Source: a virus
Lineage: Duplodnaviria > Heunggongvirae > Uroviricota > Caudoviricetes
Length of the DNA: 42,539 bases
IMG/VR virus record: IMGVR_UViG_2897341779_000003
Strand: one strand, 5' to 3'
Positions 4,064-30,956 of this stretch are shown here, piece by piece. The number at the start of each line of letters is the position of its first letter. The stretch's first letter is position 1. The notes beneath the pieces are model-generated. The model saw only the letters and a program-made list of their open reading frames with translations, had not been told where the DNA came from and did no database searches. The position numbers and the translations under genes are program-made.

Positions 4064-4335
4064 GTATTCGTATTGAAATTGGCGAACGTTATGTCGTTAC
4101 CAGTGACAGCTTTCAGTTTATTCTCCACGAGAAAAAGAGAGCGGAAAGCGGTAAAAACGCCGGTCAGGAATGGCTGGCGGTGGTTGGTTATTACCCGAAA
4201 TTAAGCCAGCTCGTTTCCGGCCTGATGCATCACGATATTCTGACCGGAAGCGCAAAGTCTTTTGCTGATTTAAACGCGCAGGTTGAGCAACTCAGCAAGC
4301 GTTGTTCAGAGGCTTTTGGCTCATATGGCCGTTAA
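4060..4335 (+). CDS. early operon small protein (orf83 position), 91 aa
   Basis: ORF with RBS; overlaps the start of A. Confidence 0.5.
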   Translation: MSIRIEIGERYVVTSDSFQFILHEKKRAESGKNAGQEWLAVVGYYPKLSQLVSGLMHHDILTGSAKSFADLNAQVEQLSKRCSEAFGSYGR

Positions 4336-6616
4336 AGCCTCCGGGCGTTTTGTCCCTCCGTCAGCATTTACCGCAGGCACCGGTAAGACGTTTACCGGTG
4401 CTTATGCATGGAACGCGCCACGCGAGGCCGTCGGGCGCGAAAGACCCCTTACACGTGACGAGATGCGTCAGGTGCAAGGTGTTTTATCCACGATTAACCG
4501 CCTGCCTTACTTTTTGCGCTCGCTGTTTACTTCACGCTATGACTACATCCGGCGCAATAAAAGCCCGGTGCACGGGTTTTATTTCCTCACATCCACTTTT
4601 CAGCGTCGTTTATGGCCGCGCATTGAGCGTGTGAATCAGCGCCATGAAATGAACACCGACGCGTCGTTGCTGTTTCTGGCAGAGCGTGACCATTATGCGC
4701 GTCTGCCGGGGATGAATGATAAGGAGCTGAAAAAGTTTGCCGCCCGTATCTCATCGCAGCTTTTCATGATGTATGAGGAACTCTGCGATGCCTGGGTGGA
4801 TGCGCATGGCGAAAAAGAATCGCTGTTTACGGATGAGGCGCAGGCTCACCTCTATGGTCATGTTGCTGGCGCTGCACGTGCTTTCAATATTTCCCCGCTC
4901 TACTGGAAAAAATACCGTAAAGGACAGATGACCACGAGGCAGGCATATTCTGCCATTGCCCGCCTGTTTAACGATGAGTGGTGGATTAGTCAGCTTAAAG
5001 GCCAGCGTATGCGCTGGCATGAGGCGTTACTGATTGCTGTCGGGGAGGTCAATAAAGACCGTTCACCTTATGCCAGTAAACATGCCATTCGTGATGTGCG
5101 TGCACGCCGCCAGGCAAATCTGGAATTTCTTAAATCGTGTGACCTTGAAAACAGGGAAACCGGCGAACGCATCGACCTTATCAGTAAGGTGATGGGCAGT
5201 ATTTCTAATCCTGAAATTCGCCGGATGGAGCTGATGAACACCATTGCCGGTATTGAGCGTTACGCCGCCGCAGAGGGTGATGTGGGGATGTTTATCACGC
5301 TTACCGCGCCGTCAAAGTATCACCCGACACGTCAGGTCGGAAAAGGCGAAAGTAAAACCGTCCAGCTAAATCACGGCTGGAACGATGAGGCATTTAATCC
5401 AAAGGATGCGCAGCGTTATCTCTGCCATATCTGGAGCCTGATGCGCACGGCATTCAAGGATAATGATTTACAGGTCTACGGTTTGCGTGTCGTCGAGCCA
5501 CACCACGACGGAACGCCGCACTGGCATATGATGCTTTTTTGTAATCCACGCCAGCGTAACCAGATTATCGAAATCATGCGTCGCTATGCGCTCAAAGAGG
5601 ATGGCGACGAAAGAGGAGCCGCGCGAAACCGTTTTCAGGCAAAACATCTTAACCGGGGCGGTGCTGCGGGGTATATCGCAAAATACATCTCAAAAAACAT
5701 CGATGGCTATGCACTGGATGGTCAGCTCGATAATGATACCGGCAGGCCGCTGAAAGATACTGCTGCGGCTGTTACCGCATGGGCGTCAACGTGGCGAATT
5801 CCGCAATTTAAAACGGTTGGCCTGCCGACAATGGGGGCTTACCGTGAACTACGCAAATTGCCTCGCGGCGTCAGTATTGCTGATGAGTTTGACGAACGCG
5901 TCGAGGCTGCTCGCGCTGCCGCAGACAGTGGTGATTTTGCGTTGTATATCAGCGCGCAGGGTGGGGCAAATGTCCCGCGCGATTGTCAGACTGTCAGGGT
6001 TGCCCGTAGCCCGTCGGATGACGTTAACGAGTACGAGGAAGAAGTCGAGAGAGTGGTCGGCATTTACGCGCCGCATCTCGGCGCGCGTCATATTCATATC
6101 ACCAGAACGACGGACTGGCGCATTGTGCCGAAAGTTCCGGTCGTTGAGCCTTTGACTTTAAAAAGCGGCATCGCCGCGCCTCGGAGTCCTGTCAATAACT
6201 GTGGAAAGCTCACCGGTGGTGATACTTCGTTACCGGCTCCCACACCTTCTGAGCACGCCGCAGCAGTGCTTAATCTGGTTGATGACGGTGTTATTGAATG
6301 GAATGAACCGGAGGTCGTGAGGGCGCTCAGGGGCGCATTAAAATACGACCTGAGAACGCCAAACCGTCAGCAAAGAAACGGAAGCCCGTTAAAACCGCAT
6401 GAAATTGCACCATCTGCCAGACTGACCAGGTCTGAACGATTGCAAATCACCCGTATCCGCGTTGACCTTGCTCAGAACGGTATCATGCCGCAGCGATGGG
6501 AGCTTGAGGCGCTGGCGCGTGGAGCGACCGTAAATTATGACGGGAAAAAATTCACGTATCCGGTCGCTGATGGTTGGGGGGGATTCATAGGGCGCTTTGA
6601 TTTTTTCTGTGTTTGA
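4325..6616 (+). CDS. A: replication initiation protein A (rolling-circle nicking endonuclease), about 763 aa
   Basis: Large ORF at the A position; N-terminus MAVKASGRF from ATG 4325 (the ORF-track start 4283 is TTG); size matches P2 A (about 761 aa). Confidence 0.85.
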   Translation: MAVKASGRFVPPSAFTAGTGKTFTGAYAWNAPREAVGRERPLTRDEMRQVQGVLSTINRLPYFLRSLFTSRYDYIRRNKSPVHGFYFLTSTFQRRLWPRIERVNQRHEMNTDASLLFLAERDHYARLPGMNDKELKKFAARISSQLFMMYEELCDAWVDAHGEKESLFTDEAQAHLYGHVAGAARAFNISPLYWKKYRKGQMTTRQAYSAIARLFNDEWWISQLKGQRMRWHEALLIAVGEVNKDRSPYASKHAIRDVRARRQANLEFLKSCDLENRETGERIDLISKVMGSISNPEIRRMELMNTIAGIERYAAAEGDVGMFITLTAPSKYHPTRQVGKGESKTVQLNHGWNDEAFNPKDAQRYLCHIWSLMRTAFKDNDLQVYGLRVVEPHHDGTPHWHMMLFCNPRQRNQIIEIMRRYALKEDGDERGAARNRFQAKHLNRGGAAGYIAKYISKNIDGYALDGQLDNDTGRPLKDTAAAVTAWASTWRIPQFKTVGLPTMGAYRELRKLPRGVSIADEFDERVEAARAAADSGDFALYISAQGGANVPRDCQTVRVARSPSDDVNEYEEEVERVVGIYAPHLGARHIHITRTTDWRIVPKVPVVEPLTLKSGIAAPRSPVNNCGKLTGGDTSLPAPTPSEHAAAVLNLVDDGVIEWNEPEVVRALRGALKYDLRTPNRQQRNGSPLKPHEIAPSARLTRSERLQITRIRVDLAQNGIMPQRWELEALARGATVNYDGKKFTYPVADGWGGFIGRFDFFCV

Positions 6617-6839
6617 CATAGAATAGCCCCGTTACCGCTTGGGACATCTACTTTGCATTACTCTTGGTATTAGCTTTGTACAAAGGGTATAAAGGCTGCT
6701 ATTGGCAACAATAGTGCTGGCATGGAGATTGCCTCATGTTAAAGCTAGTGAATGTACGCCAGTACAACCGCTACCGCTTTGGGCGTTGGGAGACGGTGCG
6801 TAAGCACCGTCGTTCTTACCCAAAACGATAATATGCGGC

Positions 6840-7169
6840 CTAAGCGGTAACGTTTTCCTCTTCTAGTTCGTCCATCATTTTTAAATAATGCATTTCGTCA
6901 CCAGTAGCTGAAAATATTGTTCTCAATTGTTTTAGGTATTTATCTGGGTCTATGTCGCCCATATCAGTAATATTTACCGCATCAGAGTGAGAACCTCTGT
7001 TAATGTATCTGTAGAATGCTTTGAAATCACTGTTGCTATCGTCGCGTGCCAACTTTGTTAATTCATCTTGTAGAGCATCTGTTCTATGAACAAATGCAAA
7101 ATAATATTCTAGTATGTTTCTCATAATATTCGGTATTATGATTTTGTTTGCTTTGCTGCGTATTTTCAT
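6840..7169 (-). pseudogene. 3' fragment (108-109 codons) of the IS-interrupted RloC/PrrC-like gene; candidate nuclease domain
   Basis: Reading frame is continuous with the 9706-11643 ORF once the IS is removed; contains R-x3-E (RNILE) followed by a downstream His, reminiscent of the anticodon-nuclease Arg-Glu-His triad; AT-rich. Confidence 0.55.
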
Positions 7170-7349
7170 GAAAGGAGATCACTCAATAACTTCCATCGAG
7201 ATCGGGTAATAACATTTGAACAGATCGCTGAATAACATCGATGGAGATCACTTTTGACTCATTTTGTTATTCAGTGATCTCCATCAATGTTATTGGAACT
7301 TCACAGGTGTGTTGATCTGTATCTTTTGCCATTCCGGTAAAGGATACCT

Positions 7350-8891
7350 ATGCCAACAGTTCCAATTTCTATGAGAAAACTTAAAGAAATTCTTAGGCTT
7401 AAATACGGTGTTGGACTCAGCCATCGACAAATTGGTCGTAGTCTTGCAATCTCCCCTTCCGTTGTATCCAGATATGCTAATCGGGCGGCTCAACTTGGCA
7501 TAAAGCAGTGGCCCTTACCTACAGGATGGGATGATACAAAACTAAAACATGCGTTCCTTCAGACCCAGGTTAAGATGAAGAAGCACTCTCTGCCTGACTG
7601 GGCTACAGTACACCGGGAACTGCGTAATAAATGCGTGACGCTGCAGCTACTCTGGGAAGAATACTGTGAGCGTAATCCAGGCGGTTTTTACAGCTATAAC
7701 CATTACTGCCGGATGTACCGTGAATGGCTCAAAACCACTTCACCATCAATGCGTCAGGTACATAAAGCTGGCGAAAAACTTTTCGTTGATTACTGTGGAC
7801 CTACCGTTGGCGTTACCGACCCTGAGACCGGAGAAATAAGAACTGCTCAGGTCATCGTAGCTGTTCTCGGGGCATCAAGTTACACATGGGCAGAGGCCAC
7901 CTGGTCTCAGCAGCTTGAAGACTGGGTGATGAGTCATGTTCGCTGCTTCCAGTGGTTGGGTGGCGTTCCTGAACTTGTTGTTCCGGACAATCTGAAAAGC
8001 GCCACATCCAGGGCATGTAAGTATGATCCTGACGTTAACCCTACCTACCAGCAGATGCTTGAGCATTATAATGTCGCAGTTTTGCCTGCGCGGCCACGTA
8101 AACCGAAAGATAAAGCCAAAGCTGAAGTTGGCGTTCAGGTTGTTGAACGCTGGATCATGGCCCGAATCAGGCATGAGATCTTCTACAGCCTTGCATCGCT
8201 TAATCAGCGCATTCGGGAGTTGCTGGAAAGACTGAATAACAAAATAATGCAGAAGTTGGGTTATTCACGTGCAGAACTCTTCATCCAGCTTGATAAACCC
8301 GCACTGAAGCCTCTTCCTGAAGCCAGTTACAGTTACACCCTGGTGAAGAAAGTCAGAGTTCATGCCGATTACCACGTGGAAATCGACAAACATTACTACT
8401 CGGTTCCATGTTCGCTGTTAGGCCAGCAACTGGAAGCATGGATCTCCGGAGAACTGGTAAGACTCTTCAATCAGGGGCAGGAGGTTGCTGTGCACCCGCG
8501 CAAGCGTACTTATGGCTACAGTACCCGCAACGAGCACATGCCTGAAGCTCATCGACAGCATGCCACCTGGACGCCAGAGCGTCTTCTGGAATGGGCGGGG
8601 CACATAGGCAGTGAAACTCATAGTTATGTGCTTCATATACTGAACTCTCGTCCACATCCGGAACAAAGCTATCGCTTCTGCCTTGGACTCCTGAACCTTC
8701 ATAAAAAATACAGTAAAGCCAGACTTAATGCAGCATGTGCAAGAGCTCTGAAAACAAAGGTATGGCGTCTGTCAGGTATTAAATCGATCCTGGAAAAAGG
8801 TCTGGATAAACAACCTGTTCAGGATCCAAAACCAGATCTGTTATCCACGATGGAACACGAAAACGTACGCGGCAGTGAGTATTACCACTGA
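7350..8891 (+). CDS. istA: IS21-family transposase IstA (513 aa)
   Basis: N-terminal HTH, integrase-core-like middle region; followed by istB with a short gap. Confidence 0.85.
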   Translation: MPTVPISMRKLKEILRLKYGVGLSHRQIGRSLAISPSVVSRYANRAAQLGIKQWPLPTGWDDTKLKHAFLQTQVKMKKHSLPDWATVHRELRNKCVTLQLLWEEYCERNPGGFYSYNHYCRMYREWLKTTSPSMRQVHKAGEKLFVDYCGPTVGVTDPETGEIRTAQVIVAVLGASSYTWAEATWSQQLEDWVMSHVRCFQWLGGVPELVVPDNLKSATSRACKYDPDVNPTYQQMLEHYNVAVLPARPRKPKDKAKAEVGVQVVERWIMARIRHEIFYSLASLNQRIRELLERLNNKIMQKLGYSRAELFIQLDKPALKPLPEASYSYTLVKKVRVHADYHVEIDKHYYSVPCSLLGQQLEAWISGELVRLFNQGQEVAVHPRKRTYGYSTRNEHMPEAHRQHATWTPERLLEWAGHIGSETHSYVLHILNSRPHPEQSYRFCLGLLNLHKKYSKARLNAACARALKTKVWRLSGIKSILEKGLDKQPVQDPKPDLLSTMEHENVRGSEYYH

Positions 8892-8902
8892 TACGGGATC
8901 CA

Positions 8903-9652
8903 ATGATGAATCATCTTTACGAACAACTGACCGCACTTAAACTCACCGGCTTCCGTGATGCGCTTAAAAAGCAACTTGCTCAGCCGGGCACATACCAGGA
9001 GCTGGGCTTCGAAGAACGCCTGTCATTACTGACAGCAGAAGAACTAACCTGCCGTGAAAACAGGAAGGCAGAGCGTCTGATCAAACATGCACGGTTCAGA
9101 CTTAATGCTGAGTTATCAAAGCTGGATTATCGTAACAATAGAGGGCTGGACAGGGCCCTCATCCGTTCACTCAGTCAGGGAAACTGGTTAACCCTGAAAC
9201 AAAATATTTTACTGACCGGGGCCACCGGCAGCGGTAAAACGTTCCTGGCATGTGCACTTGGTCATAATGCCTGCCGACAGGGATACAAGGTCTACTATTA
9301 TCGCCTTAAAGCGCTGATGGAACAGTGCTATCAGGGGCATGCTGATGGAAGATACAGCAAACTTTTGACCAGGCTGAATAATAGCGATCTGCTGCTTCTG
9401 GATGACTGGGGGCTGGAACCTCTCTCATCAGAACAGCGTAGCGACCTGCTGGAAATAGTGGATCTGATGTACCAACGAGGCTCAATCATCGTAGTGAGCC
9501 AGTTGCCGGTGGAAAACTGGTACAAAATGATCGGAGACTCCACACATGCGGATGCCATCCTAGATCGACTGGTTCATGGCAGTATCAAGATCGAACTTAA
9601 AGGAGAATCAATGCGGAAAATACAATCACCGTTGACCGAAGGAGATCAGTGA
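8903..9652 (+). CDS. istB: IS21-family helper ATPase IstB (249 aa)
   Basis: Walker A LLTGATGSGKTF and Walker B LLLLDDWG; DnaC-like architecture typical of IstB. Confidence 0.85.
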   Translation: MMNHLYEQLTALKLTGFRDALKKQLAQPGTYQELGFEERLSLLTAEELTCRENRKAERLIKHARFRLNAELSKLDYRNNRGLDRALIRSLSQGNWLTLKQNILLTGATGSGKTFLACALGHNACRQGYKVYYYRLKALMEQCYQGHADGRYSKLLTRLNNSDLLLLDDWGLEPLSSEQRSDLLEIVDLMYQRGSIIVVSQLPVENWYKMIGDSTHADAILDRLVHGSIKIELKGESMRKIQSPLTEGDQ

Positions 9653-9705
9653 AGGTAATTTAAAAACGGTTCTGTGAAAGTGACACGAACCGATCTCCAT
9701 CGATG

Positions 9706-11643
9706 TTACTCACCGATCTCCTTCACGGTAATACGCACTTTGCCATCTTTTGCATCTTTTAATATTTGCCACAAAGATTGATATTCATTCTGTATGCTGT
9801 TTTTTTGTATTTCAGTAATTATACTAAAATCATTTTTCGTTACTCTACCTAGATAATAGTTTTTCTTAAATAGTTTGTCTTCTCTGCTTTTAGGAGATAG
9901 CTTAATAAGTTCATGAAAGAAATAAAGATTGTGAGTAAGGATTAATACCTTCTTTGTTAATTCATTTTTTATAATGTGGTGATGAATAATTGATGCGATG
10001 TCGTAGACATAGTTTTGCGATAGACTAGATATTGGATCGTCAATAACAATAAAAATATCCCTGCTATCGGTATCATTTTTATCGGTTTTACCTTTACAGC
10101 ACTCTAAAAAATAAAGAAACGTTATTAGTGTTTTTTCACCTTCGCTAAGAGATCTATAAACATTTTGGTTTTTTGTATGCCCTGGTCGAGATATAATGTA
10201 CATATCTTTTCTTTCTGCATGTTTTTCAATACAAAAACCAGAGATCCCTAGATTTTTTAAATGGGTGTTTATTGAGTCTATCGTAGAATCAATGTTAGAT
10301 ATTTTATCTCGCAATGCTTTTATTGTGAGATTATTTTCTTTTCCTTGTTGCTCAATATTATTTAATTCATCATGAACTTTCTTTTTGATATCAAAGAATT
10401 TTTCTTTGTGTTTGGATAAATTCTCTAAATCATCGCTGCAAAAAGCATGGAGAGCCCCCCAAACTTGTTTTCCGATTTTATTCTCATACTCTTTGAGTTT
10501 TTTAACCTTATCATTTATGTCTCTTATTTTCTTGTTAACAGCGCCTATGCTTTCCTGAACATGATTTTCTAGTTCTTTATCAATTTCTAATGTAACGCAT
10601 GTTGATGGATTGTTGATCTTATCAATAATGTTTATTAAATTTTTTTCTGCAATGTTTTGCAATATTTTAATATTGGAAATAATGTTCTCTTTATCTTTCT
10701 CATTGATTAGTGCACATGATGATATATTGTTTTGTATTTCGTTAAAATGATATATGGTATTTTTCTCATAAACTGACTTTATATCTGAGAGCTGTTTTAC
10801 TTTCTTTGAATAACTTTCGTCAAATATTGATTTAAGGGCATTTAAAAATTCGTGACTAATAGTTTTTTCCTGACAAAACGGACATGTAGAACCGTCTAAA
10901 TAATGTTCTTTACCTTTTTTTACCCAGTCAAGATTATGAAGTTTATTAATGGTTTCTGATAAATAGCTATTGCTTGTATCTATTATAGGTGTTGCTAATG
11001 TATTTACATCATCAATTGATGGGGTATATGGATGTAAAGGAGTTATTAATGCGGTTTCATTGTTTCTATTTTCTAATAGTATAGAGTATTCTTTTGCTAT
11101 ATCATTTAAATTAATAAAGGTGATTGGTGAGGATGATTTTATCATCTCAAAAAAAGGTCTTTTATAGCCAACTTTACCTTTCATTAAGGTTTTTAGTACA
11201 GAGTTTCTGATTGGTTCTGTTTTTTTCCAGATCGATTCGATGTATTCATTTTCTTTTTTTTCCATTTCTGCTTCTAATTTCAATAACACTCCTTTTTTTT
11301 GTCTATATTGCTCTGTGAGTTGCTGTTTAATTGCTTCTTTTTCAATTAATTGTTTTTCAATATCTGCATTTTCTTTACTTAATGTAAAAACACCTTTTTG
11401 TTCCTGTGCATTATAGAAGTTATCTTCAATAAATTTAGTGTTGTAAACAAGAGGTTTGTAATTGTCAAGAAGGGTACATTCACACTCGTTATAATCTGTG
11501 TGTGTAGAGTCGTAGAAATAATTTGAAATGGTAGATTTGCCACAACCATTTTGGCCGTATAGTATGTTTACTCTTTTTTCAAGATTCAGTATTGTGAAGG
11601 CGTCTTTCTTATAACTGGTAACATTTTTTAATCTAAGTTCCAT
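9706..11643 (-). pseudogene. 5' portion (about 639 native codons) of a Rad50/ABC-type ATPase with CxxC hook, RloC/PrrC-like candidate defence gene, truncated by the IS
   Basis: Walker A GQNGCGKST, coiled-coil-like stretches, CPFCQ, ABC-signature-like LSEGEK, Walker B IFIVIDDP, H-loop LILTHN; the last 6 codons and the stop derive from the IS end; about 30% GC. Confidence 0.6.
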
Positions 11644-12146: not shown

Positions 12147-13181
12147 TCAGCCGTTGTCAGTGTCCAGTGAGTAGTTTTTAAAGCGGATGACCTCCTGACC
12201 GAGCCAGCCGTTTATTTCCCGAATCCTGTCCTGTAGCGGGATAAGTTCATTGCGGACAAAGACCTTTGCCACTTTCTCAATATCACCCAGAGACCCGACG
12301 TTTTCCGGCTTGCCGCCCATCAACTGAAAGGGGATGCGGTGCGCATCCAGCAGGTCAACGGCGCTGGCTTTTTTGATATTAAAAAAATCGTCCTTCGTCG
12401 CCACTTCACTGAGCGGGATAATTTTAATGCCGTCGGCTTTCCCCTGTGGGGCATAGAGAAACAGGTTTTTAAAGTTATTGCGGCCTTTCGACTTCACCAT
12501 GTTTTCGCGAAGCATTTCGATATCGTTGCGGTCCTGCACGGCATCGGTGACGTACATGATGTATCCGGCATGCGCGCCGTTTTCGTAATACTTGCGGCGG
12601 AACAGCGTGGCCGACTCATTCAGCCAGGCAGAGTTAAGGGCGCTGAGATATTCCGGCAGGCCGTACAGCTCCTGATTAATATCCGGCTCCAGCAGGTGAA
12701 ACACGGAACCGGGCGCGAAAGGTGTCGGCTCGTTGAAGGACGGCACCCACCAGTAAACATCCTCCTCCACGCCACGGCGGGTATATTTTGCCGGTGAGGT
12801 TTCCAGTCTGATGATCTTACCGGTGGTGCTGTAACGCTTTTCCAGAAACGCATTACCGAACACCAGAAAATCCAGCACAAAGCGGCTGAAATCCTGTTGC
12901 GAAAGCCACGGATGCGGGATAAATGTCGAGGCCAGAATATTGCGTTTAACGTAAATCGGTGAGCTGTGATGCACGGCAGCACGCAGGCTTTTCGCCAGAC
13001 CGGTAAAGCTGACCGGCGGCTCATACCATCTGCCGTTACTGATGCACTCGACGTAATCCAGAATGTCACGGCGGTCGAGTACCGGCACCGGCTCACCAAA
13101 GGTGAATGCCTCCATTTTCGGGGCGCTGGCGGTCATTTTTTTTGCCGCAGGTTGCGGTGTTTTCCCTTTTTTCTTGCTCAT
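12147..13181 (-). CDS. Q: portal protein (344 aa)
   Basis: 344 aa as in P2 gpQ; first gene after cos, co-oriented with P; ATGA overlap with the P stop. Confidence 0.9.
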   Translation of the reverse strand: MSKKKGKTPQPAAKKMTASAPKMEAFTFGEPVPVLDRRDILDYVECISNGRWYEPPVSFTGLAKSLRAAVHHSSPIYVKRNILASTFIPHPWLSQQDFSRFVLDFLVFGNAFLEKRYSTTGKIIRLETSPAKYTRRGVEEDVYWWVPSFNEPTPFAPGSVFHLLEPDINQELYGLPEYLSALNSAWLNESATLFRRKYYENGAHAGYIMYVTDAVQDRNDIEMLRENMVKSKGRNNFKNLFLYAPQGKADGIKIIPLSEVATKDDFFNIKKASAVDLLDAHRIPFQLMGGKPENVGSLGDIEKVAKVFVRNELIPLQDRIREINGWLGQEVIRFKNYSLDTDNG

Positions 13182-14953
13182 CAGTAAAACTCCAGAATGG
13201 TGGATGTCAGCGGGGGGCTGATACCGGCGGTGAGTGGCTCATTTAACAGGGCGTGCATGGTCGCCCAGGCGAGGTCGGCATGGCTGGCTTCCTCGCTGCG
13301 GCTGGCCTCATAAGTGGCGCTGCGTCCGCTGCTGGTCATGGTCTTGCGGATAGCCATAAACGAGCTGGTGATGTCGGTGGCGCTGACGTCATATTCCAGA
13401 CAGCCACGGCGGATGACGTCTTTTGCCTTGAGCACCATTGCGGTTTTCATTTCCGGCGTGTAGCGGATATCGCGCGCGGCGGGATAGAACGAGCGCACGA
13501 GCTGGAACACGCCGACACCGAGGCCGGTGGCATCAATACCGATGTATTCGACGTTGTATTTTTCGGTGAGTTTGCGGATGGATTCCGCCTGAGTGGCAAA
13601 GTCCATGCCTTTCCACTGGTGACGCTCAAGTATTCTGAATTTGCCACCGGCCACCACCGGCGGTGCCAGTACCACGCATCCGGCGCTGTCGCCACGGTGT
13701 GACGGGTCGTAACCAATCCAGACCGGGCGGGAGCCGAACGGATTGGCGGCAAACGGCGCATAGTCTTCCCATTCTTCCAGCGTGTCGACCATGCAGCGTT
13801 GCAGCTCCTCGAACGGGAACACCGACGCCTTGTCGTCAACAAATTCACACATGAACAGGTTTTTAAAATCGTCGGCGCTGTTTTCGCGTTTGAGCTGTTC
13901 AATGTCGAACAGCGTGCAGCCACCTTTCAGGGCGTCCTCAATGGTGACAATCTGCCGCCACTGGCCGTCCGCACAGAGAAGCCCACCGGCAAGGGCGTTA
14001 TGACTGACGTCGATTTCCACGCGTTCGGCGGCGCTGGCGCGTCCCCGGTTGAACAGTTCACCTGACCAGAACGGGTAGGCGTCGTGCGCCAGCGTGGACG
14101 GGGTGGAGAAATAGGTCGAGCGCAGGTGACTCTGTGAGGCCATACCTGATGCCACCTTACGCAGTACCTGAAAATTCGGGATCCAGAAAATCTCGTCGAC
14201 GTACAGGTCGCCGTTATGGCTCTGTGCGGTGTTGGAGTTGGTGCCGAGAAAAATCAGTTTTGCGCCGTTATTGCCCAGGACAATCGGGTCACCGGTCAGG
14301 TCAACGTCAACCAGCCGGGCAAAGGCGATGATGTATTCGCGGAACACATACGCCTGCGTTTTACTGGCCGACAGAAAAATCTGGTTATGGCCGGTTTTCA
14401 GGGCGCGCAGCAGCGCCTCGCGGGAAAAATAAAACGTCGCGCCAATCTGGCGGGATTTCAGGATATCGCGGATGCGGTGCTCAAGCCCGGCGCGATACCA
14501 GTGCAACTGATAGTCGAAAGACTGCTCAAAGAAAATCTGCTCCAGCTTTTCGATGGCCTCGTCACTGAAAAAATTTTTTTTCGGTTTGCGCCGCCCGCCT
14601 TTGTTGCGGTTAGCGACGTTCGGATTAAGGTCTGCCTCGTTGCCGGTCTGGCTGTAACGATTTACCCGTGCCAGTCGTTCAATCTGGCGTCCCAGCAGGT
14701 CAATTTCCTTGAAGTCACCGCCGGTTTTCTGCGGTTTGATGATGAGCTGGGTCAGCCGCGCTTCCAGGCTCATTTCGACACGGCTGATGGGGGCAACGTT
14801 GTCCCAGCCGTCGCGCTGTTTCCAGCTCTGCACTGTCGGGCGTTTCATCTGCAACATGGCGGCAATCTGCGGCACGGAAAATCCCTGCCAGTACAGCAGC
14901 GCCGCCTGACGACGCGGGTCGTGTAAAAGAGTGGTGTCTGTGGTGATGGTCAT
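13181..14953 (-). CDS. P: terminase large subunit (ATPase/nuclease), 590 aa
   Basis: Size and position as in P2 gpP; ATG at 14953 with RBS GGCGAGG (the ORF-track start at 14983 is TTG). Confidence 0.9.
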   Translation of the reverse strand: MTITTDTTLLHDPRRQAALLYWQGFSVPQIAAMLQMKRPTVQSWKQRDGWDNVAPISRVEMSLEARLTQLIIKPQKTGGDFKEIDLLGRQIERLARVNRYSQTGNEADLNPNVANRNKGGRRKPKKNFFSDEAIEKLEQIFFEQSFDYQLHWYRAGLEHRIRDILKSRQIGATFYFSREALLRALKTGHNQIFLSASKTQAYVFREYIIAFARLVDVDLTGDPIVLGNNGAKLIFLGTNSNTAQSHNGDLYVDEIFWIPNFQVLRKVASGMASQSHLRSTYFSTPSTLAHDAYPFWSGELFNRGRASAAERVEIDVSHNALAGGLLCADGQWRQIVTIEDALKGGCTLFDIEQLKRENSADDFKNLFMCEFVDDKASVFPFEELQRCMVDTLEEWEDYAPFAANPFGSRPVWIGYDPSHRGDSAGCVVLAPPVVAGGKFRILERHQWKGMDFATQAESIRKLTEKYNVEYIGIDATGLGVGVFQLVRSFYPAARDIRYTPEMKTAMVLKAKDVIRRGCLEYDVSATDITSSFMAIRKTMTSSGRSATYEASRSEEASHADLAWATMHALLNEPLTAGISPPLTSTILEFY

Positions 14954-15126
14954 GAATACCTCGCCGTGATGAATACACGGCAAGGCTACTGAGTCGCGCC
15001 CTGCGATTCGCTAAGGTGCTGTTGTGTCAGTGATAAGCCATCCGGGACTGATGGCGGAGGATGCGCATCGTCGGGAAACTGATGCCGACATGTGACTCCT
15101 CTAATCACTATTCAGGACTCCTGACA

Positions 15127-23819: not shown

Positions 23820-26549
23820 ATGAGCACGAAATTTAAAACCGTTATCACTACTGCCGGAGCCGCAAAGCTGGCAGCCGCCACTGTCCCCGGCGGGAAAAAA
23901 GTAACCCTGTCTGCAATGGCCGTGGGTGACGGTAATGGCAAATTGCCGGTGCCGGATGCCGGTCAGACGAAACTGGTGCATGAGGTCTGGCGTCACGCTC
24001 TGAATAAAGTCAGCGTGGATAACAAGAATAAAAACTATATCGTGGCTGAACTGGTTGTACCGCCCGAAGTGGGCGGCTTCTGGATGCGTGAGCTTGGTCT
24101 GTATGACGATGCCGGAACACTGATTGCGGTATCCAACATGGCTGAAAGCTATAAGCCAGAACTGGCTGAAGGCTCCGGGCGTGCGCAGACCTGCCGCATG
24201 GTTATTATTGTCAGTAACGTGGCGTCCGTTGAGCTGAGTATTGATGCCAGCACAGTGATGGCGACGCAGGATTACGTCGATGACAAAATCGCAGAGCATG
24301 AGCAGTCCCGCCGCCATCCTGACGCCACGCTGACAGAAAAAGGTTTTACTCAGTTAAGCAGTGCAACAAACAGCACCAGTGAGTCATTGGCAGCAACGCC
24401 AAAAGCGGTCAAGGCAGCAAATGACAACGCAAATTCACGTCTGGCGAAAAATCAGAATGGTGCAGATATCCAGGATAAATCAGCTTTTCTGGACAATGTT
24501 GGCGTTACCAGCCTGACGTTTATGAAAAACAATGGCGAAATGCCGGTTGATGCTGATCTGAATACGTTTGGTTCTGTTAAGGCTTATTCAGGTATCTGGT
24601 CTAAAGCAACGTCCACCAACGCAACACTGGAGAAAAACTTCCCTGAAGATAATGCTGTCGGTGTGCTTGAGGTTTTTACTGGCGGCAATTTTGCAGGCAC
24701 GCAACGCTATACCACACGTGACGGAAATTTGTATATCCGCAAACTCATTGGAACATGGAATGGTAATGATGGACCATGGGGAGCATGGCGCCATGTTCAG
24801 GCTGTAACGCGAGCTCTAAGTACGACCATTGACCTTAACTCTCTCGGTGGCGCAGAACATTTAGGTCTATGGAGAAACAGCAGTTCAGCAATAGCTTCTT
24901 TTGAACGACATTACCCCGAGCAGGGAGGAGACGCGCAGGGCATTCTGGAAATTTTCGAAGGTGGGCTATATGGACGCACACAGCGTTATACAACCCGTAA
25001 CGGGACTATGTATATTCGCGGCCTGACAGCCAAATGGGATGCAGAAAATCCACAGTGGGAAGACTGGATCCAAATTGGTTATCAGACCAGTAGTACCTTC
25101 TATGAGGATGACCTGGATGATTTGATGTCTCCAGGTATTTACAGTGTGACAGGCAAAGCGACCCACACCCCAATCCAGGGGCAGTCTGGTTTTCTGGAAG
25201 TCATCAGGCGCAAGGATGGTGTCTATGTTTTGCAACGTTACACGACCACAGGAACCAGCGCAGCTACAAAAGACCGTTTATATGAGCGAGTGTTTCTTGG
25301 TGGCTCATTTAACGCGTGGGGGGAGTGGCGACAGATTTATAACTCAAACTCTTTGCCGTTAGAGTTGGGTATCGGTGGCGCAGTGGCAAAACTCACCAGC
25401 CTGGACTGGCAGACATACGATTTTGTGCCGGGCAGTCTGATAACCGTTCGGCTGGATAACATGACCAATATTCCCGACGGTATGGACTGGGGCGTCATTG
25501 ATGGCAACCTGATAAACATCTCAGTCGGTCCGAGTGATGATTCTGGTTCGGGACGCTCAATGCATGTATGGCGCAGCACTGTAAGTAAAGCCAACTACCG
25601 CTTTTTTATGGTGCGTATTTCAGGAAATCCGGGAAGCCGCACGATCACGACAAGACGTGTGCCAATTATCGACGAAGCCCAGACATGGGGCGCGAAACAG
25701 ACATTCAGTGCTGGCCTTTCTGGTGAACTGTCCGGCAATGCGGCGACAGCAACAAAGCTGAAAACAGCCCGTAAAATTAATAACGTTTCGTTTGATGGAA
25801 CATCAGATATTAACCTGACGCCGAAAAATATTGGTGCATTTGCTTCAGGAAAAACAGGAGACACCGTTGCGAATGATAAAGCCGTTGGATGGAACTGGAG
25901 TAGCGGAGCCTATAACGCAACTATTGGTGGGGCATCAACGTTAATTCTTCATTTTAATATCGGGGAAGGAAGTTGTCCCGCCGCCCAGTTTCGCGTTAAT
26001 TATAAGAACGGTGGTATTTTTTATCGTTCTGCTCGTGACGGTTACGGATTCGAGGCTGACTGGTCTGAGTTTTATACCACAACGCGAAAACCTACAGCGG
26101 GAGATGTCGGTGCACTGCCGTTATCTGGTGGTCAATTGAATGGTGCTCTGGGTATAGGAACATCCAGTGCTCTTGGCGGTAATTCGATTGTTTTGGGTGA
26201 TAATGACACGGGCTTTAAACAAAATGGTGATGGTAATCTGGATGTTTATGCTAATAGCGTCCATGTTATGCGCTTTGTCTCCGGAAGCGTTCAAAGTAAT
26301 AAAACCATAAATATTACGGGGCGTGTTAATCCCTCGGATTACGGTAACTTTGATTCCCGCTATGTGAGAGATGTCAGACTTGGCACACGTGTTGTCCAGA
26401 CCATGCAGAAAGGGGTGATGTATGAGAAAGCAGGGCACGTAATTACCGGGCTTGGTATTGTCGGTGAAGTCGATGGTGATGACCCCGCAGTATTCAGACC
26501 AATACAAAAATACATCAATGGCACATGGTATAACGTCGCACAGGTGTAA
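23820..26549 (+). CDS. H: tail fibre protein (909 aa), conserved N-terminus and a variable repeat-containing C-terminus
   Basis: N-terminal region including the QLSSATNSTSESLAATPKAVK motif shared by P2 H and lambda Stf-type fibres; three internal QRYTTR-G-Y-R-W-W repeats; longer than P2 H (about 669 aa). Confidence 0.85.
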   Translation: MSTKFKTVITTAGAAKLAAATVPGGKKVTLSAMAVGDGNGKLPVPDAGQTKLVHEVWRHALNKVSVDNKNKNYIVAELVVPPEVGGFWMRELGLYDDAGTLIAVSNMAESYKPELAEGSGRAQTCRMVIIVSNVASVELSIDASTVMATQDYVDDKIAEHEQSRRHPDATLTEKGFTQLSSATNSTSESLAATPKAVKAANDNANSRLAKNQNGADIQDKSAFLDNVGVTSLTFMKNNGEMPVDADLNTFGSVKAYSGIWSKATSTNATLEKNFPEDNAVGVLEVFTGGNFAGTQRYTTRDGNLYIRKLIGTWNGNDGPWGAWRHVQAVTRALSTTIDLNSLGGAEHLGLWRNSSSAIASFERHYPEQGGDAQGILEIFEGGLYGRTQRYTTRNGTMYIRGLTAKWDAENPQWEDWIQIGYQTSSTFYEDDLDDLMSPGIYSVTGKATHTPIQGQSGFLEVIRRKDGVYVLQRYTTTGTSAATKDRLYERVFLGGSFNAWGEWRQIYNSNSLPLELGIGGAVAKLTSLDWQTYDFVPGSLITVRLDNMTNIPDGMDWGVIDGNLINISVGPSDDSGSGRSMHVWRSTVSKANYRFFMVRISGNPGSRTITTRRVPIIDEAQTWGAKQTFSAGLSGELSGNAATATKLKTARKINNVSFDGTSDINLTPKNIGAFASGKTGDTVANDKAVGWNWSSGAYNATIGGASTLILHFNIGEGSCPAAQFRVNYKNGGIFYRSARDGYGFEADWSEFYTTTRKPTAGDVGALPLSGGQLNGALGIGTSSALGGNSIVLGDNDTGFKQNGDGNLDVYANSVHVMRFVSGSVQSNKTINITGRVNPSDYGNFDSRYVRDVRLGTRVVQTMQKGVMYEKAGHVITGLGIVGEVDGDDPAVFRPIQKYINGTWYNVAQV

Positions 26550-26552
26550 TTT

Positions 26553-27080
26553 ATGCAGCATTTAAAAAATATTACTGCGGGTAATCCAAAAACTGTTGCC
26601 CAATATCAACTGACAAAAAATTTTGATGTTATCTGGTTATGGTCCGAAGAGGGAAAAAACTGGTATGAGGAAGTAAGTAATTTTCAGGAAGACACGATAA
26701 AGATTGTTTACGATGAGAATAATATAATTGTCGGCATCACCAGAGATGCTTCAACGCTCAACCCTGAAGGTTTTAGCGTTGTCGAGGTTCCTGATATTAC
26801 CGCCAACCGACGTGCTGATGACTCAGGTAAATGGATGTTTAAGGATGGTGCCGTGATTAAGCGGATTTATACGGCAGACGAACAGCTGCAACTGGCGGAA
26901 TTACAGAAGTCAGCTTTGCTTTCCGAAGCTGAAACTATCATTCAGCCACTGGAACGCTCTGTCAGACTGAATATGGCAACAGATGAGGAGCGTAGCCGAC
27001 TGGAAGCATGGGAACGCTACAGTGTTCTGGTCAGCCGTGTGGATCCTGCAAATCCTGAATGGCCGGAAATGCCGCAATAA
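26553..27080 (+). CDS. G: tail fibre assembly chaperone (175 aa)
   Basis: 175 aa immediately after H, as in P2. Confidence 0.8.
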
Positions 27081-27135
27081 GTTGTATGATCTCTGGAGTG
27101 AGCTAACGTATCTATAGCACAGAGTAAAGCCTAAT

Positions 27136-27146
27136 CTGACAGTCTG
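27136..27146. repeat. inverted copy (CTGACAGTCTG) of the 11-bp repeat core CAGACTGTCAG, sitting in the loop of a 10-bp inverted repeat (27115-27124 / 27147-27156)
   Basis: Exact reverse complement of the cores at 27259-27269 and 29569-29579. Confidence 0.6.
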
Positions 27147-27258
27147 CTCTGTGCTAGGAGCGGACTGACCTGCTTCCCGATGATTAATACACAGCTATGC
27201 TAGTAATGTCCGTAGATCGCTGTGTGTTGCATCCATCGGTTGAACTCACAGTCCAAAC

Positions 27259-27302
27259 CAGACTGTCAGCTTTGATTAGATTCTACCTACTCAACCTGTC
27301 AG
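27259..27302. repeat. left copy of an about 45-bp imperfect direct repeat bracketing the G-FI cargo
   Basis: Framework CAGACTGTCAG-c/g-TTTGAT...TGTCAG, with the two TGTCAG elements 32 bp apart in both copies. Confidence 0.65.
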
Positions 27303-27501
27303 ATAAGGTCTGAGCTAATACATCTAATATATGGCTTCGTGCAGGGGACGGCTATCGCGAACGTTAGGCCAGGTATCTGAATACGCACAGTTCACTTGGT
27401 TGTACTTCTTGCACTGATCTGCTATCCCGCACAGCTATTTATAGGTAATCTTCAGTGTATAATCTGCCAACTTATGGAAGCTTGTACAACAGGAGAAATA
27501 T

Positions 27502-28344
27502 ATGAAAAAAGAATTGTTTGGACGTTGCCCGTTTGATCTTGACGAAGATGTAAAAAAAATAGCCGCGATAAATAAATATATCCATGCAAAATTTGAGGAG
27601 CATAAAAATAAAATAGACAACCTAAAGGGTGTGGAACAAAAATTGATGGTCTTACAGTACTTTAATGTACTGAATGAACTTAGTAATCAGGCTATCTCTT
27701 CTTTGAATATAGGAGCCTTTTCAGCATCGGAAGTATTAGCTAGGGTTATAATAGAACAGGCTGCCAATCAATTTTATATAGCAATAGATGATGGCGAAAA
27801 TGCACAAGCATTACTCAAGGCTAGTAAGAAATTAGTTCATAGTAATGGAAAACGGTGGCTGGAGTGTTTAAAATCCAAAGGAATGACTAATCCAGCAGCA
27901 AATGAAAGGATTCGCATGGGAAAAGAACTAACTGATCTATTTAATAGATTGTGGCCAAATACACCTGAATATCCAGGAACCAGAAGACTTTTTGAATTAA
28001 TTGGCTGGGAAACACACTATCATGCCCATTACGTTCCCCTTTGTGATTCAATACATACATTCTCTGATGATATGGTAAATATAGTATCTCTATATAATGC
28101 AATCCAAAGTGATGAAAATACTGCTATCGAATTCATTCTTGCAGTTAAACAAGAAAATAAACGGCTGGCAATTTATAATTTTGTAATTGCTACGGCCCTT
28201 CGGTGTGAGGCCTTAGTAAATGTATTTAACTCTTTAGGTTATCAGGATATTATAACAGAAATGACACCAACAATAGATACAGTCAACCAGACTATAATTC
28301 GATATGATGATTTTGATCATTCCAGAATTGATGATTGTCAATAA
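27502..28344 (+). CDS. hypothetical protein (280 aa), AT-rich cargo gene; candidate phage-defence or superinfection-exclusion effector
   Basis: RBS AGGAG 7 nt before the ATG; candidate -10 TATAAT at 27458-27463; no confidently recognised domain; C-terminal R-x5-H (RYDDFDH). Confidence 0.6.
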   Translation: MKKELFGRCPFDLDEDVKKIAAINKYIHAKFEEHKNKIDNLKGVEQKLMVLQYFNVLNELSNQAISSLNIGAFSASEVLARVIIEQAANQFYIAIDDGENAQALLKASKKLVHSNGKRWLECLKSKGMTNPAANERIRMGKELTDLFNRLWPNTPEYPGTRRLFELIGWETHYHAHYVPLCDSIHTFSDDMVNIVSLYNAIQSDENTAIEFILAVKQENKRLAIYNFVIATALRCEALVNVFNSLGYQDIITEMTPTIDTVNQTIIRYDDFDHSRIDDCQ

Positions 28345-28450
28345 TTAATTGACAGAATACGTACATGCGCAACAACTAGTGATAGTTGACTTATTTTCGC
28401 TCTTGAGAGACAACCATACTCAAATCTCCCACATTGCAGGAGATTTGAAT

Positions 28451-29035
28451 ATGAAAACGTCACCGTGGAATAAAGACCGTACCATCGGTCAAAAAAGGCC
28501 ACTTCAGATATTTCATATCTGGGGGATCCGGATTAGACTTGAGTTGGAAGGTAAAACACGCGATCTAGCTCTGTTCAACATGGCTTTGGACACTAAGCTA
28601 CGGGGCTGTGATTTGGTCAAACTCAAAGTATCAGATGCTGCATATGGCAGTTCTGTCTCAAGCAGAGCAACGGTGTTGCAACAGAAAACCGGCAGCCCTG
28701 TCCAATTTGAGATAACCAAAGGGACAAGGGAAGCGGTTACTGCATTGATAAAGCTCGGCAACTGGCATAGTAAAGGCTTCCTGTTCCGCTCTCGGGTCGG
28801 AACTAACCACCATATATCAACCCGGCAATACAACCGAATTTTTCATGGGTGGGTAGAAAAGCTTGGTCTCGAAGATTCGCTGTACAGCACACATTCCATG
28901 AGAAGAACAAAACCTTACTTAATCTACAAGAAAACCAAGAGTCTCCGGGTGATCCAACTTCTGTTGGGCCATAAGAAACTGGAAAGCACAGTCCGTTATT
29001 TGGGCATTGAAGTCGATATAGAAGGTCTCTTTTAA
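28451..29035 (+). CDS. small tyrosine recombinase, catalytic domain only (about 194 aa), FimB/FimE-like
   Basis: Catalytic residues present in order: Arg (LRGCDL), Lys (QQKTG), His-x-x-Arg (HSMRRT), His (LLGHKK), Tyr (VRYLG); RBS AGGAG before ATG 28451; no N-terminal DNA-binding domain. Confidence 0.7.
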   Translation: MKTSPWNKDRTIGQKRPLQIFHIWGIRIRLELEGKTRDLALFNMALDTKLRGCDLVKLKVSDAAYGSSVSSRATVLQQKTGSPVQFEITKGTREAVTALIKLGNWHSKGFLFRSRVGTNHHISTRQYNRIFHGWVEKLGLEDSLYSTHSMRRTKPYLIYKKTKSLRVIQLLLGHKKLESTVRYLGIEVDIEGLF

Positions 29036-29057
29036 GTTATGGGGGCTGATTTTATAT

Positions 29058-29447
29058 TCAATAGCGTATGCTCATCGAAGAAATAAACTCATAAAATGTA
29101 AAGACAGCCAGCAAAAACATACAGATAAAGATAAGGGAAATAGCACACTTAACTAAGGGCTGAACCCCCCGAGGTGTTCCCCATGGTTTAGACATTTGGG
29201 TTATAACCCAAATAAATAAGGCCACAAAACAGCAAACACCAGCCAATCCGAGCAGAGATATTATGACAACTCCAAACAGATTTCCAACATCTAGTTTATC
29301 TGTTTTTGCAACTAGGGTTAACAAACCAGCAATAATAGTTGCAATCGATATTCCCGCAATGGTTGTGAGATCGGCGATAACAGCCAGTTTTTCTTTAGTA
29401 TTTCCTTGAGTAAAGACCTCTAAAATTGATTTCATGGAAATAACCAC
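29058..29447 (-). CDS. small integral membrane protein (129 aa, 3-4 predicted transmembrane helices)
   Basis: Strongly hydrophobic segments throughout; AT-rich; opposite strand to the surrounding late genes. Confidence 0.55.
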   Translation of the reverse strand: MVISMKSILEVFTQGNTKEKLAVIADLTTIAGISIATIIAGLLTLVAKTDKLDVGNLFGVVIISLLGLAGVCCFVALFIWVITQMSKPWGTPRGVQPLVKCAISLIFICMFLLAVFTFYEFISSMSIRY

Positions 29448-29568
29448 CTACTATCGATTATATTCAGGAGCTTTTTATCATAACGATATCAGATAGATAA
29501 GGACATTGTAATATTTTGGATGATTTAAACTTGCTTTTGTAACTCTAATGTCCACTTTTCGCTCAAAG

Positions 29569-29612
29569 CAGACTGTCAGGTTTGATAGCATTTGGGCTAT
29601 GTAAATTGTCAG
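29569..29612. repeat. right copy of the about 45-bp imperfect direct repeat bracketing the G-FI cargo
   Basis: CAGACTGTCAGGTTTGATAG...TTGTCAGG; same internal spacing as the left copy. Confidence 0.65.
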
Positions 29613-29642
29613 GCGGAAAATGAGTGAGTACAAATCAGGACA

Positions 29643-29669
29643 GGCGGGCGAATTGCCCGCCTTTTCTTT
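29643..29669 (+). terminator. rho-independent terminator separating the cargo from the FI late operon
   Basis: Hairpin GGCGGGC-GAATT-GCCCGCC followed by TTTTCTTT. Confidence 0.7.
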
Positions 29670-29765
29670 ATCTGTTGTTTCATCCACTGACCAGCCAGGT
29701 CAAATAGCGTCTTATGCTCTGCACAACAGAAAATAGTTGTACCCATTAACCACGGAGTTAAACGG

Positions 29766-30956
29766 ATGAGTGACTATCATCATGGCGTGCAGGTGCTGGA
29801 GATTAACGACGGCACCCGCGTCATTTCCACCGTATCCACTGCCATTGTCGGCATGGTCTGCACGGCCAGCGATGCGGATGCGGAAACCTTCCCCCTCAAT
29901 AAACCGGTGCTGATTACCAATGTGCAAAGCGCAATTGCAAAGGCCGGTAAAAAAGGCACGCTGGCGGCATCGTTGCAGGCCATCGCTGACCAGTCAAAAC
30001 CGGTCACCGTTGTCGTGCGCGTGGAAGACTGCACCGGTGATGACGAGGAAACGAAACTCGCGCAGACCGTTTCCAATATCATCGGCACCACCGACGAAAA
30101 CGGTCAGTACACCGGACTAAAAGCCCTGCTGGCGGCGGAGTCGGTAACCGGTGTTAAACCGCGTATTCTCGGTGTGCCGGGACTGGATACCAAAGAGGTG
30201 GCTGTTGCACTGGCATCCGTCTGTCAGAAGCTGCGCGCTTTCGGATATATCAGCGCATGGGGCTGTAAGACCATTTCCGAGGTGAAAGCCTACCGCCAGA
30301 ATTTCAGCCAGCGTGAGCTGATGGTCATCTGGCCGGATTTCCTCGCATGGGATACGGTCACCAGTACCACCGCTACCGCGTATGCCACCGCCCGTGCGCT
30401 GGGTCTGCGCGCTAAAATCGACCAGGAGCAGGGCTGGCATAAAACGCTGTCCAACGTCGGGGTAAACGGTGTTACCGGCATCAGCGCATCTGTATTCTGG
30501 GATTTGCAGGAGTCCGGCACCGATGCTGACCTGCTTAACGAGTCAGGCGTCACTACGCTGATTCGCCGCGACGGTTTCCGATTCTGGGGTAACCGTACCT
30601 GCTCTGATGACCCGCTGTTCCTCTTTGAAAACTACACCCGCACCGCGCAGGTACTGGCTGACACGATGGCTGAGGCGCACATGTGGGCGGTGGACAAGCC
30701 CATCACCGCAACGCTGATTCGCGACATCGTTGACGGCATCAATGCCAAATTCCGTGAGCTGAAAACAAACGGCTATATCGTGGATGCGACCTGCTGGTTC
30801 AGCGAAGAATCCAACGATGCGGAAACCCTCAAGGCCGGAAAACTGTATATCGACTACGACTATACACCGGTGCCTCCTCTTGAAAACCTGACCCTGCGCC
30901 AGCGTATTACCGATAAATACCTGGCAAATCTGGTCACCTCGGTTAACAGCAATTAA
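29766..30956 (+). CDS. FI: tail sheath protein (396 aa)
   Basis: 396 aa as in P2 gpFI. Confidence 0.9.
   Translation: MSDYHHGVQVLEINDGTRVISTVSTAIVGMVCTASDADAETFPLNKPVLITNVQSAIAKAGKKGTLAASLQAIADQSKPVTVVVRVEDCTGDDEETKLAQTVSNIIGTTDENGQYTGLKALLAAESVTGVKPRILGVPGLDTKEVAVALASVCQKLRAFGYISAWGCKTISEVKAYRQNFSQRELMVIWPDFLAWDTVTSTTATAYATARALGLRAKIDQEQGWHKTLSNVGVNGVTGISASVFWDLQESGTDADLLNESGVTTLIRRDGFRFWGNRTCSDDPLFLFENYTRTAQVLADTMAEAHMWAVDKPITATLIRDIVDGINAKFRELKTNGYIVDATCWFSEESNDAETLKAGKLYIDYDYTPVPPLENLTLRQRITDKYLANLVTSVNSN

Follow-up and report, generated by a model that had tools for sequence, protein, structure and literature searches.

The window, by which we mean the whole 42,539-nt stretch of DNA that was analysed, is a P2-like E. 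coli prophage according to its gene content and a Pfam scan. It carries an integrase, the replication gene A and Q/P, together with head, lysis and tail genes. Between the tail-fibre assembly gene G and the tail sheath gene FI lies a foreign segment of about 2.7 kb with three genes that code for a DUF5677-family protein, a short tyrosine recombinase and a hydrophobic protein. Coordinates are collected in Table 1.

Table 1. Features of the window, with strand and remarks where assigned
Feature	Position	Strand	Remarks
Integrase	753-1766	-	
Replication gene A	4283-6616		
PDC-S06, C-terminal fragment	6840-7169	-	
istA of IS21-family insertion	7350-8891		
istB of IS21-family insertion	8903-9652		
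PDC-S06, N-terminal 645 codons	9706-11643	-	
Q/P	12147-14983	-	
Tail fibre gene H	23820-26549		
Tail-fibre assembly gene G	26553-27080		Caudo_TAP, E 7e-34
Left inverted repeat of the P2 Z/fun slot	27118-27165		hairpin GCACAGAG...CTCTGTGC
Probable IS3-family terminal relic	27166-27210	+	TGACCTGCTTCCCGATG...; left junction of the inserted block
Extra copy resembling the right inverted repeat	27254-27302	+	CAGACTGTCAG...; inside the mobile block
Block a, DUF5677 gene and about 220 bp of 5' sequence	27282-28404		
-10 box TATAAT, perfect	27458-27463	+	38 nt upstream of the ATG
Ribosome-binding site AGGAG	27491-27495	+	6 nt 5' of the ATG
DUF5677-family gene	27502-28344	+	280 aa, all-helical, cytoplasmic
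Block b, recombinase gene with preceding hairpin	28396-29017		
Hairpin with 15-bp arms	28414-28454	+	left end of the recombinase module; dG -17.4 kcal/mol, z = -5.2
Short tyrosine recombinase gene	28451-29035	+	194 aa
Block c, hydrophobic protein gene	29017-29573		
Hydrophobic protein gene, PHROG 4155	29058-29435	-	125 aa, about 3 membrane-spanning segments
Right inverted repeat of the P2 Z/fun slot	29550-29612		
Tail sheath gene FI	29766-30956		

The DUF5677 ORF, which begins with the ATG at 27502 and ends with the stop codon at 28342-28344, is a genuine gene under purifying selection. With the local composition (stop probability of 0.077 per codon) a stop-free run of 280 codons has a chance probability of about 2e-10, and the dN/dS, estimated against three diverged copies, is 0.25-0.35. 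A preliminary description of this DNA, made from its letters, had given the gene its own ribosome-binding site and a plausible -10 element, and both are present as AGGAG and TATAAT. The promoter consists of the -10 box only: the -35 region is weak, with no convincing element, and a consensus promoter scan made no call there. The TATAAT box lies within the 5' region that moves together with the gene in every context. The low GC content, also pointed out earlier, is confirmed. The DUF5677 gene has a GC content of 0.34-0.36 (about 35%). The tail genes have about 57%, with 0.53-0.59 on the FI side, and the stretch upstream of gene H has 0.52-0.60; genes H and G show intermediate values of 0.40-0.52.

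The same description called the product an orphan protein with no recognisable domain, which does not hold. The protein matches Pfam DUF5677 (PF18928) at residues 50-194 with 39.5 bits against a cut-off of 27.1 (E 8e-10), and PHROG 4167 from end to end (E 2e-202). The identical protein WP_000711883.1 is named 'DUF5677 domain-containing protein' in RefSeq and is found on at least 1000 public contigs. A HMMER search of 1.84 billion representative proteins resulted in 82 clusters, most of them 260-345 aa long and matched over most of their length, the remainder being shorter fragments. Among the 66 aligned homologues 65-66 score above the Pfam DUF5677 threshold. The Pfam model spans only the central ~145 residues, whereas the present subfamily is conserved over about 270, and no other Pfam domains or fusions appear in the nine longest or most divergent homologues scanned. 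The gene is present in 56 of 5426 complete E. coli genomes and the whole 2.66-kb cargo in 35 of them. The carriers include the ExPEC/APEC strains S88, IHE3034 and APEC O1:K1:H7, and also the EPEC strain E2348/69. No relative is encoded in 50,697 isolated-phage records (tblastn of the protein), and the related-locus search with close alignment returned near-identical loci only. A literature search for PF18928 and the accessions gave nothing useful. The gene is an already annotated member of a known, uncharacterised family, located in a known hotspot.

The place of the gene between G and FI is the Z/fun slot of P2, in agreement with the accessory slot named in the preliminary description. The flanks in the window agree with the 'Z-region' sequences deposited for P2-EC58 and P2-EC67, annotated inverted repeats included; the homology to the P2 flanks ends at about 27167 on the left and resumes at about 29556 on the right. 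The DUF5677 gene shares its slot and both inverted repeats with the P2 Z/fun gene and with ORF1 of P2-EC58/P2-EC67. It has the position, the Z-region repeats and the foreign base composition by which the morons of this slot are recognised. Like each of them, it is a single gene of low GC with its own promoter and ribosome-binding site, and such morons are interchangeable between otherwise near-identical P2-like phages. The likeness does not extend to the protein, which has no sequence relationship to P2 Fun(Z) or EC67 ORF1 (hhalign probability <1%). P2 fun(Z) blocks phage T5.

The left inverted repeat contains the 11-mer CTGACAGTCTG at 27136-27146. The 11-mer CAGACTGTCAG occurs four times in the window, at 27136-27146 on the minus strand and at 27259-27269, 29569-29579 and 5987-5997 on the plus strand, with 0.01 occurrences expected by chance. 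Each inverted repeat of the Z slot has one copy, the extra repeat of the mobile block has one, and one lies in replication gene A, where 16 of 17 bases are those of the right repeat. The 11-mer might mark a recombination or nicking site that loads the Z slot; a literature search for it gave nothing useful.

The gene had been described earlier as the likely effector of the G-FI cargo. BLAST boundaries divide this cargo into three blocks (a, b and c in Table 1). Block a alone has 94.7% identity with a locus (L010) that lies downstream of guaA in a different bacterium, and there the DUF5677 gene is followed by a PLD/NgoFVII-like nuclease instead of the recombinase. The segment 27142-29017 is 96.6% identical to a Buttiauxella locus (L009) beside a Tn3 transposase and resolvase. 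Copies of 27165-29017 with about 89% identity are carried by lambdoid (DicB/Rem-type) prophages of E. coli, that of E2348/69 among them. These lambdoid copies are placed directly after replication protein P and directly before Septu (PtuA E 2e-165, PtuB E 1e-83). Block b is found without DUF5677 on 135 plasmids, mostly conjugative ones of Klebsiella or E. coli, with varied neighbours, and the unit of hairpin and recombinase on enterobacterial plasmids has 80-92% nucleotide identity. In the window the recombinase has ...GIEVDIEGLF after 29017 in place of its native C-terminus (...GIEVDDALEISESIEV in L009). In other P2-like prophages the PHROG 4155 gene of block c fills the Z slot by itself or together with a DUF6650 gene. 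It is absent from every non-P2 context. Of E. coli genomes 63 carry it, and some of these do not have the DUF5677 and recombinase genes.

Judged by these comparisons of sequence, the cargo is an assembly of three independently moving modules and not one system. A single operon or system of the three genes was considered and rejected, since their distributions are separate and the partners are not co-conserved across contexts.

A partnership of the DUF5677 protein with the adjacent recombinase, in which the pair forms a mobility or inversion cassette, would nevertheless explain why the two genes are neighbours on the same strand in three unrelated contexts, namely P2, the lambdoid prophages and the Tn3-adjacent locus. 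DUF5677 genes of Bacillota have also been flagged as co-transcribed with serine recombinases (preprint PMC12632615). However, the lambdoid copies combine an intact DUF5677 gene with a recombinase disrupted by a frameshift and an internal stop, and the recombinase is missing from L010 and from all distant homologues. The recombinase module exists on plasmids without DUF5677, and the recombinase of the window is devoid of its native C-terminus. We consider the partnership highly improbable. With the recombinase frameshifted, the DUF5677 gene intact and its dN/dS at 0.25-0.35, the DUF5677 gene is therefore selected for itself.

The junctions of the modules have several features of their own. At the left junction of the inserted block, the probable IS3-family relic marks the start of the homology with the lambdoid module copy. 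Over 46 bp it is 89% identical to L023 1905-1950, a stretch of a Kosakonia plasmid that directly precedes an IS3-family transposase. Because of this resemblance, the junction suggests an IS-assisted arrival. In genome GPEC128-620 an intact IS3-family element also interrupts the DUF5677 region. According to RNA folding, the hairpin in front of the recombinase gene buries the GGAG and AUG of this gene; it may be a translational control element or a recombination site. An Rfam scan of 26900-29900 found no RNA family. In three of the lambdoid loci (L011, L012 and L013, at about 5150-9030) the DUF5677 module is immediately upstream of a complete Septu system (PtuA/PtuB). The same 8.5-kb lambdoid segment is also deposited as a small circular 'plasmid' record, NZ_CP148379.1.

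The AlphaFold2 model of the DUF5677 protein, built with the alignment of 66 sequences, has ten helices and zero strands (pLDDT 95.1, pTM 0.92). The protein has no membrane segment, since the top 19-residue hydropathy is only 1.35. The model is not specifically similar to any solved or viral structure: Foldseek searches of PDB and BFVD gave nothing below E 0.07 (TM<0.27), a profile search of PDB sequences gave only noise at E>0.3, and hhalign of the two halves of the protein showed no internal duplication (probability <1%).

Conservation across the family, followed over 66 sequences with identities down to 15-20%, is concentrated in two places. The first is a stripe of i+4 spacing on helix 3 with E77 (57/66, the rest being D), R81 (66/66), E85 (65/66), N89 (63/66) and Y92. 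The second is the junction of helices 7 and 8 with S/C181, D182 (56/66), S183, H185 (65/66), S188, E/D189, D190 (62/66) and N193 (62/66). Elsewhere W119, W/Y157-P158, F164, E170, Y173, E218 and Y225 are conserved. The protein of the window carries the residues of the family core that are invariant or conserved in at least 90% of the alignment, namely R81, E85, N89, W119, P158, F164, Y173, H185, D190 and N193. Because many invariant polar residues are placed in a helical bundle, we argue for a catalytic or ligand-binding site of the His/carboxylate type, and the polar stripes look like such a metal- or phosphate-binding site. The two stripes would then face each other or form one site. Hydrolase chemistry of any specific kind is, in our estimate, far less probable than the function proposed below.

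This pattern bears directly on the HEPN suggestion of the preliminary description, which had pointed to RYDDFDH near the C-terminus as a possible HEPN-like RNase motif. In this reading the protein would kill by RNA cleavage in the manner of abortive infection. RYDDFDH is indeed present at residues 267-273. However, R267-x5-H273 is found in only 7 of the 66 members, all of them close enterobacterial relatives, so that the check set beforehand, the conservation of the motif in homologues, goes against the HEPN suggestion. The column of R267 is variable, H273 belongs to a poorly aligned, variable stretch, and in the column of Y268 a His stands in 55 of the 66 sequences. An R81-x4-H86 is present in 21 members; the protein of the window has Gln at this position and others have Met, Tyr, Asn or Thr, which means that position 86 is not a catalytic His either. 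In no column of the 66-sequence alignment is there a conserved Rx4-6H motif.

Profile scans for HEPN and Abi families with the protein and its 66 homologues, the mapping of the motif and a fold search were all negative or non-specific. No HEPN or Abi Pfam family is among the matches of the 66 members even at E<=5. PADLOC-DB v2.0.0 gave 0 matches for the protein of the window and scattered single weak ones among the 66 homologues, and NCBIfam gave no match for the former. Hence, unlike HEPN Abi/RNase effectors such as AbiV, AbiF/AbiD and the HEPN part of HEPN-MNT, DUF5677 has neither the conserved motif nor a profile match. Its conserved residues, E-x3-R-x3-E-x3-N and D-S-x-H-x3-[ED]-D-x2-N, are located on different helices. 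The HEPN reading fails because R-x5-H is not conserved in the homologues; we have rejected the protein as a HEPN member and give this mechanism almost no weight. The proposed activity site of the DUF5677 protein is no HEPN Rx4-6H RNase site.

Restriction-modification islands are also among the places where the module recurs. Of the contexts of the relatives, ten of the 14 informative ones are on mobile elements or beside defence-type genes, and no conserved partner gene is found across the contexts examined. P0007 and P0008 (41% identical) occupy the same post-replication slot of lambdoid prophages, without the recombinase. They are surrounded by DUF4365, PRTase-CE with NADAR, a GAPS4-type PD-(D/E)xK protein, methylases and an AAA_15/21 ATPase. 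The Leptospira member adjoins an integrase, Dcm, Vsr and HATPase_c_3, and P0018 is part of an element that carries an integrase, together with a methylase, HATPase_c_3 and a nuclease of the non-specific endonuclease type. P0025 belongs to an ICE-like contig (TraI_2 relaxase, integrase), where it adjoins a DUF4365-TPR protein, and P0048 is carried as cargo by a Tn7-like transposon (TniB, two TniQ), with P4 cII and Beta genes nearby. The context of P0022, which adjoins a DUF3800 gene on a short contig, is ambiguous. P0005, P0011 and P0014 each stand alone, with ordinary genes of metabolism or regulation around them.

As a separate observation, DUF4365 proteins adjoin DUF5677 genes both in a lambdoid prophage (L004 9293-10150) and in an ICE-like contig (L043 968-2848), two elements that are unrelated. 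In a Pseudomonas-type chromosome an 82-aa ORF with no Pfam match (L019 7756-8004) shares 4 nt with the start of the DUF5677 homologue, an arrangement that could mean translational coupling; in contig L020, which is nearly identical, this ORF is not called.

The tail-gene slot of P2 is listed among the defence hotspots, many uncharacterised genes of the P2 and P4 hotspots are predicted to be antiviral, and of eight uncharacterised P4 hotspot loci picked at random, six gave protection from phages (PMC13586616). A single DUF4238 protein from a P2 hotspot protects alone, against T7 (Rousset et al. 2022, PMC9122126). It is a close precedent in that a single protein with an uncharacterised domain is the hotspot cargo of a P2-like prophage; it differs in that the family is another one and the slot is the A-Q 'TO' hotspot rather than G-FI.

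The main rival is an accessory function other than defence, for example in stress, metabolism, regulation or selfish maintenance, with the hotspot being simply the place where elements tolerate insertions. P2 hotspots also carry partition systems and cytolethal distending toxin (PMC9122126), and no known defence model matches the protein. We also count against defence the three homologues that are single genes among housekeeping-type neighbours (P0005, P0011 and P0014). DUF5677 appears in the defence literature in one place only, a preprint (PMC12632615). There it is statistically enriched beside serine recombinases in defence contigs of Bacillota. One Enterococcus-group DUF5677 ORF, challenged with six phages in E. 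faecalis, did not belong to the five positives. The mention of DUF5677 was dropped from the published version. No other defence test of a DUF5677 protein is reported, and this negative one, on a distant homologue, is weak evidence against defence. On the other side, ten of the 14 informative contexts are of the mobile or bona fide defence kind, and the gene was captured repeatedly as a single module by unrelated elements. We regard a non-defence function as rather unlikely.

Counter-defence or competition between elements would account for the same contexts in another way, the protein helping its element to beat host immunity or to hinder other elements. Its carriers are phages, transposons and ICE-like elements, and anti-defence genes also cluster in accessory slots beside defence genes. 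However, the gene has its own promoter within a late-gene region and is kept in grounded or defective lambdoid prophages and at non-mobile chromosomal sites, which fits a function expressed in the resident cell. Furthermore, 280 aa exceeds the size of typical inhibitors, and anti-defence genes are rare in P2, with 28 among 1511 elements (PMC13586616). Counter-defence is improbable in our view.

Tentatively, and with a little less than even confidence, we suggest that the DUF5677 protein is a stand-alone accessory module, most likely for phage exclusion or defence, expressed from its own promoter in the lysogen and with chemistry centred on the E-R-E-N and D-S-H-D-N residues. The module, a single-gene moron with its own -10 box and ribosome-binding site, has been shuffled among the cargo slots of several kinds of mobile elements, in the present case the P2 G-FI (Z/fun) slot. 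The gene would be expressed in the lysogen. Its protein would act on its own, without partners, and most likely protect the lysogen, or the element that carries it, against other phages. The activity would be seated in E77-R81-E85-N89 of helix 3 and D182-S183-H185-(E/D)189-D190-N193 of helices 7 and 8. Of the role proposed in the preliminary description, the defence or accessory part is plausible from the hotspot position and the defence-type neighbours of the relatives; the HEPN effector is abandoned, and so is an effector of the G-FI cargo if that is taken as one system.

A broader form of the defence reading is possible, if more doubtful. DUF5677 would then be a new family of single-protein immunity with a fold that has no solved relative, a site of two stripes and no partner. 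Mobile elements would have spread it, namely P2-like and lambdoid prophages, Tn3- and Tn7-type transposons and ICEs, over Proteobacteria, Spirochaetes and Bacillota.

The gene is a reasonable but unproven defence candidate, and not in itself surprising. As it stands, it is one among many uncharacterised hotspot genes and a candidate for plaque assays. If the defence reading is true, a function can be assigned to an uncharacterised Pfam domain, and mechanistic work gains a new immunity protein that acts alone and has an unmodelled fold. It would also bear on host range in the ExPEC/APEC lineages of E. coli and in EPEC E2348/69. Whatever the function is, the P2 tail-gene slot is seen here to be built piecemeal from one-gene modules that circulate independently, and this is a caution against reading neighbouring hotspot genes as one 'system'.

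The other P2 hotspot of the window, between A and Q (6840-11643), carries the PADLOC candidate PDC-S06, an AAA_13 ATPase, which is split by an IS21-family insertion into the two parts listed in Table 1.
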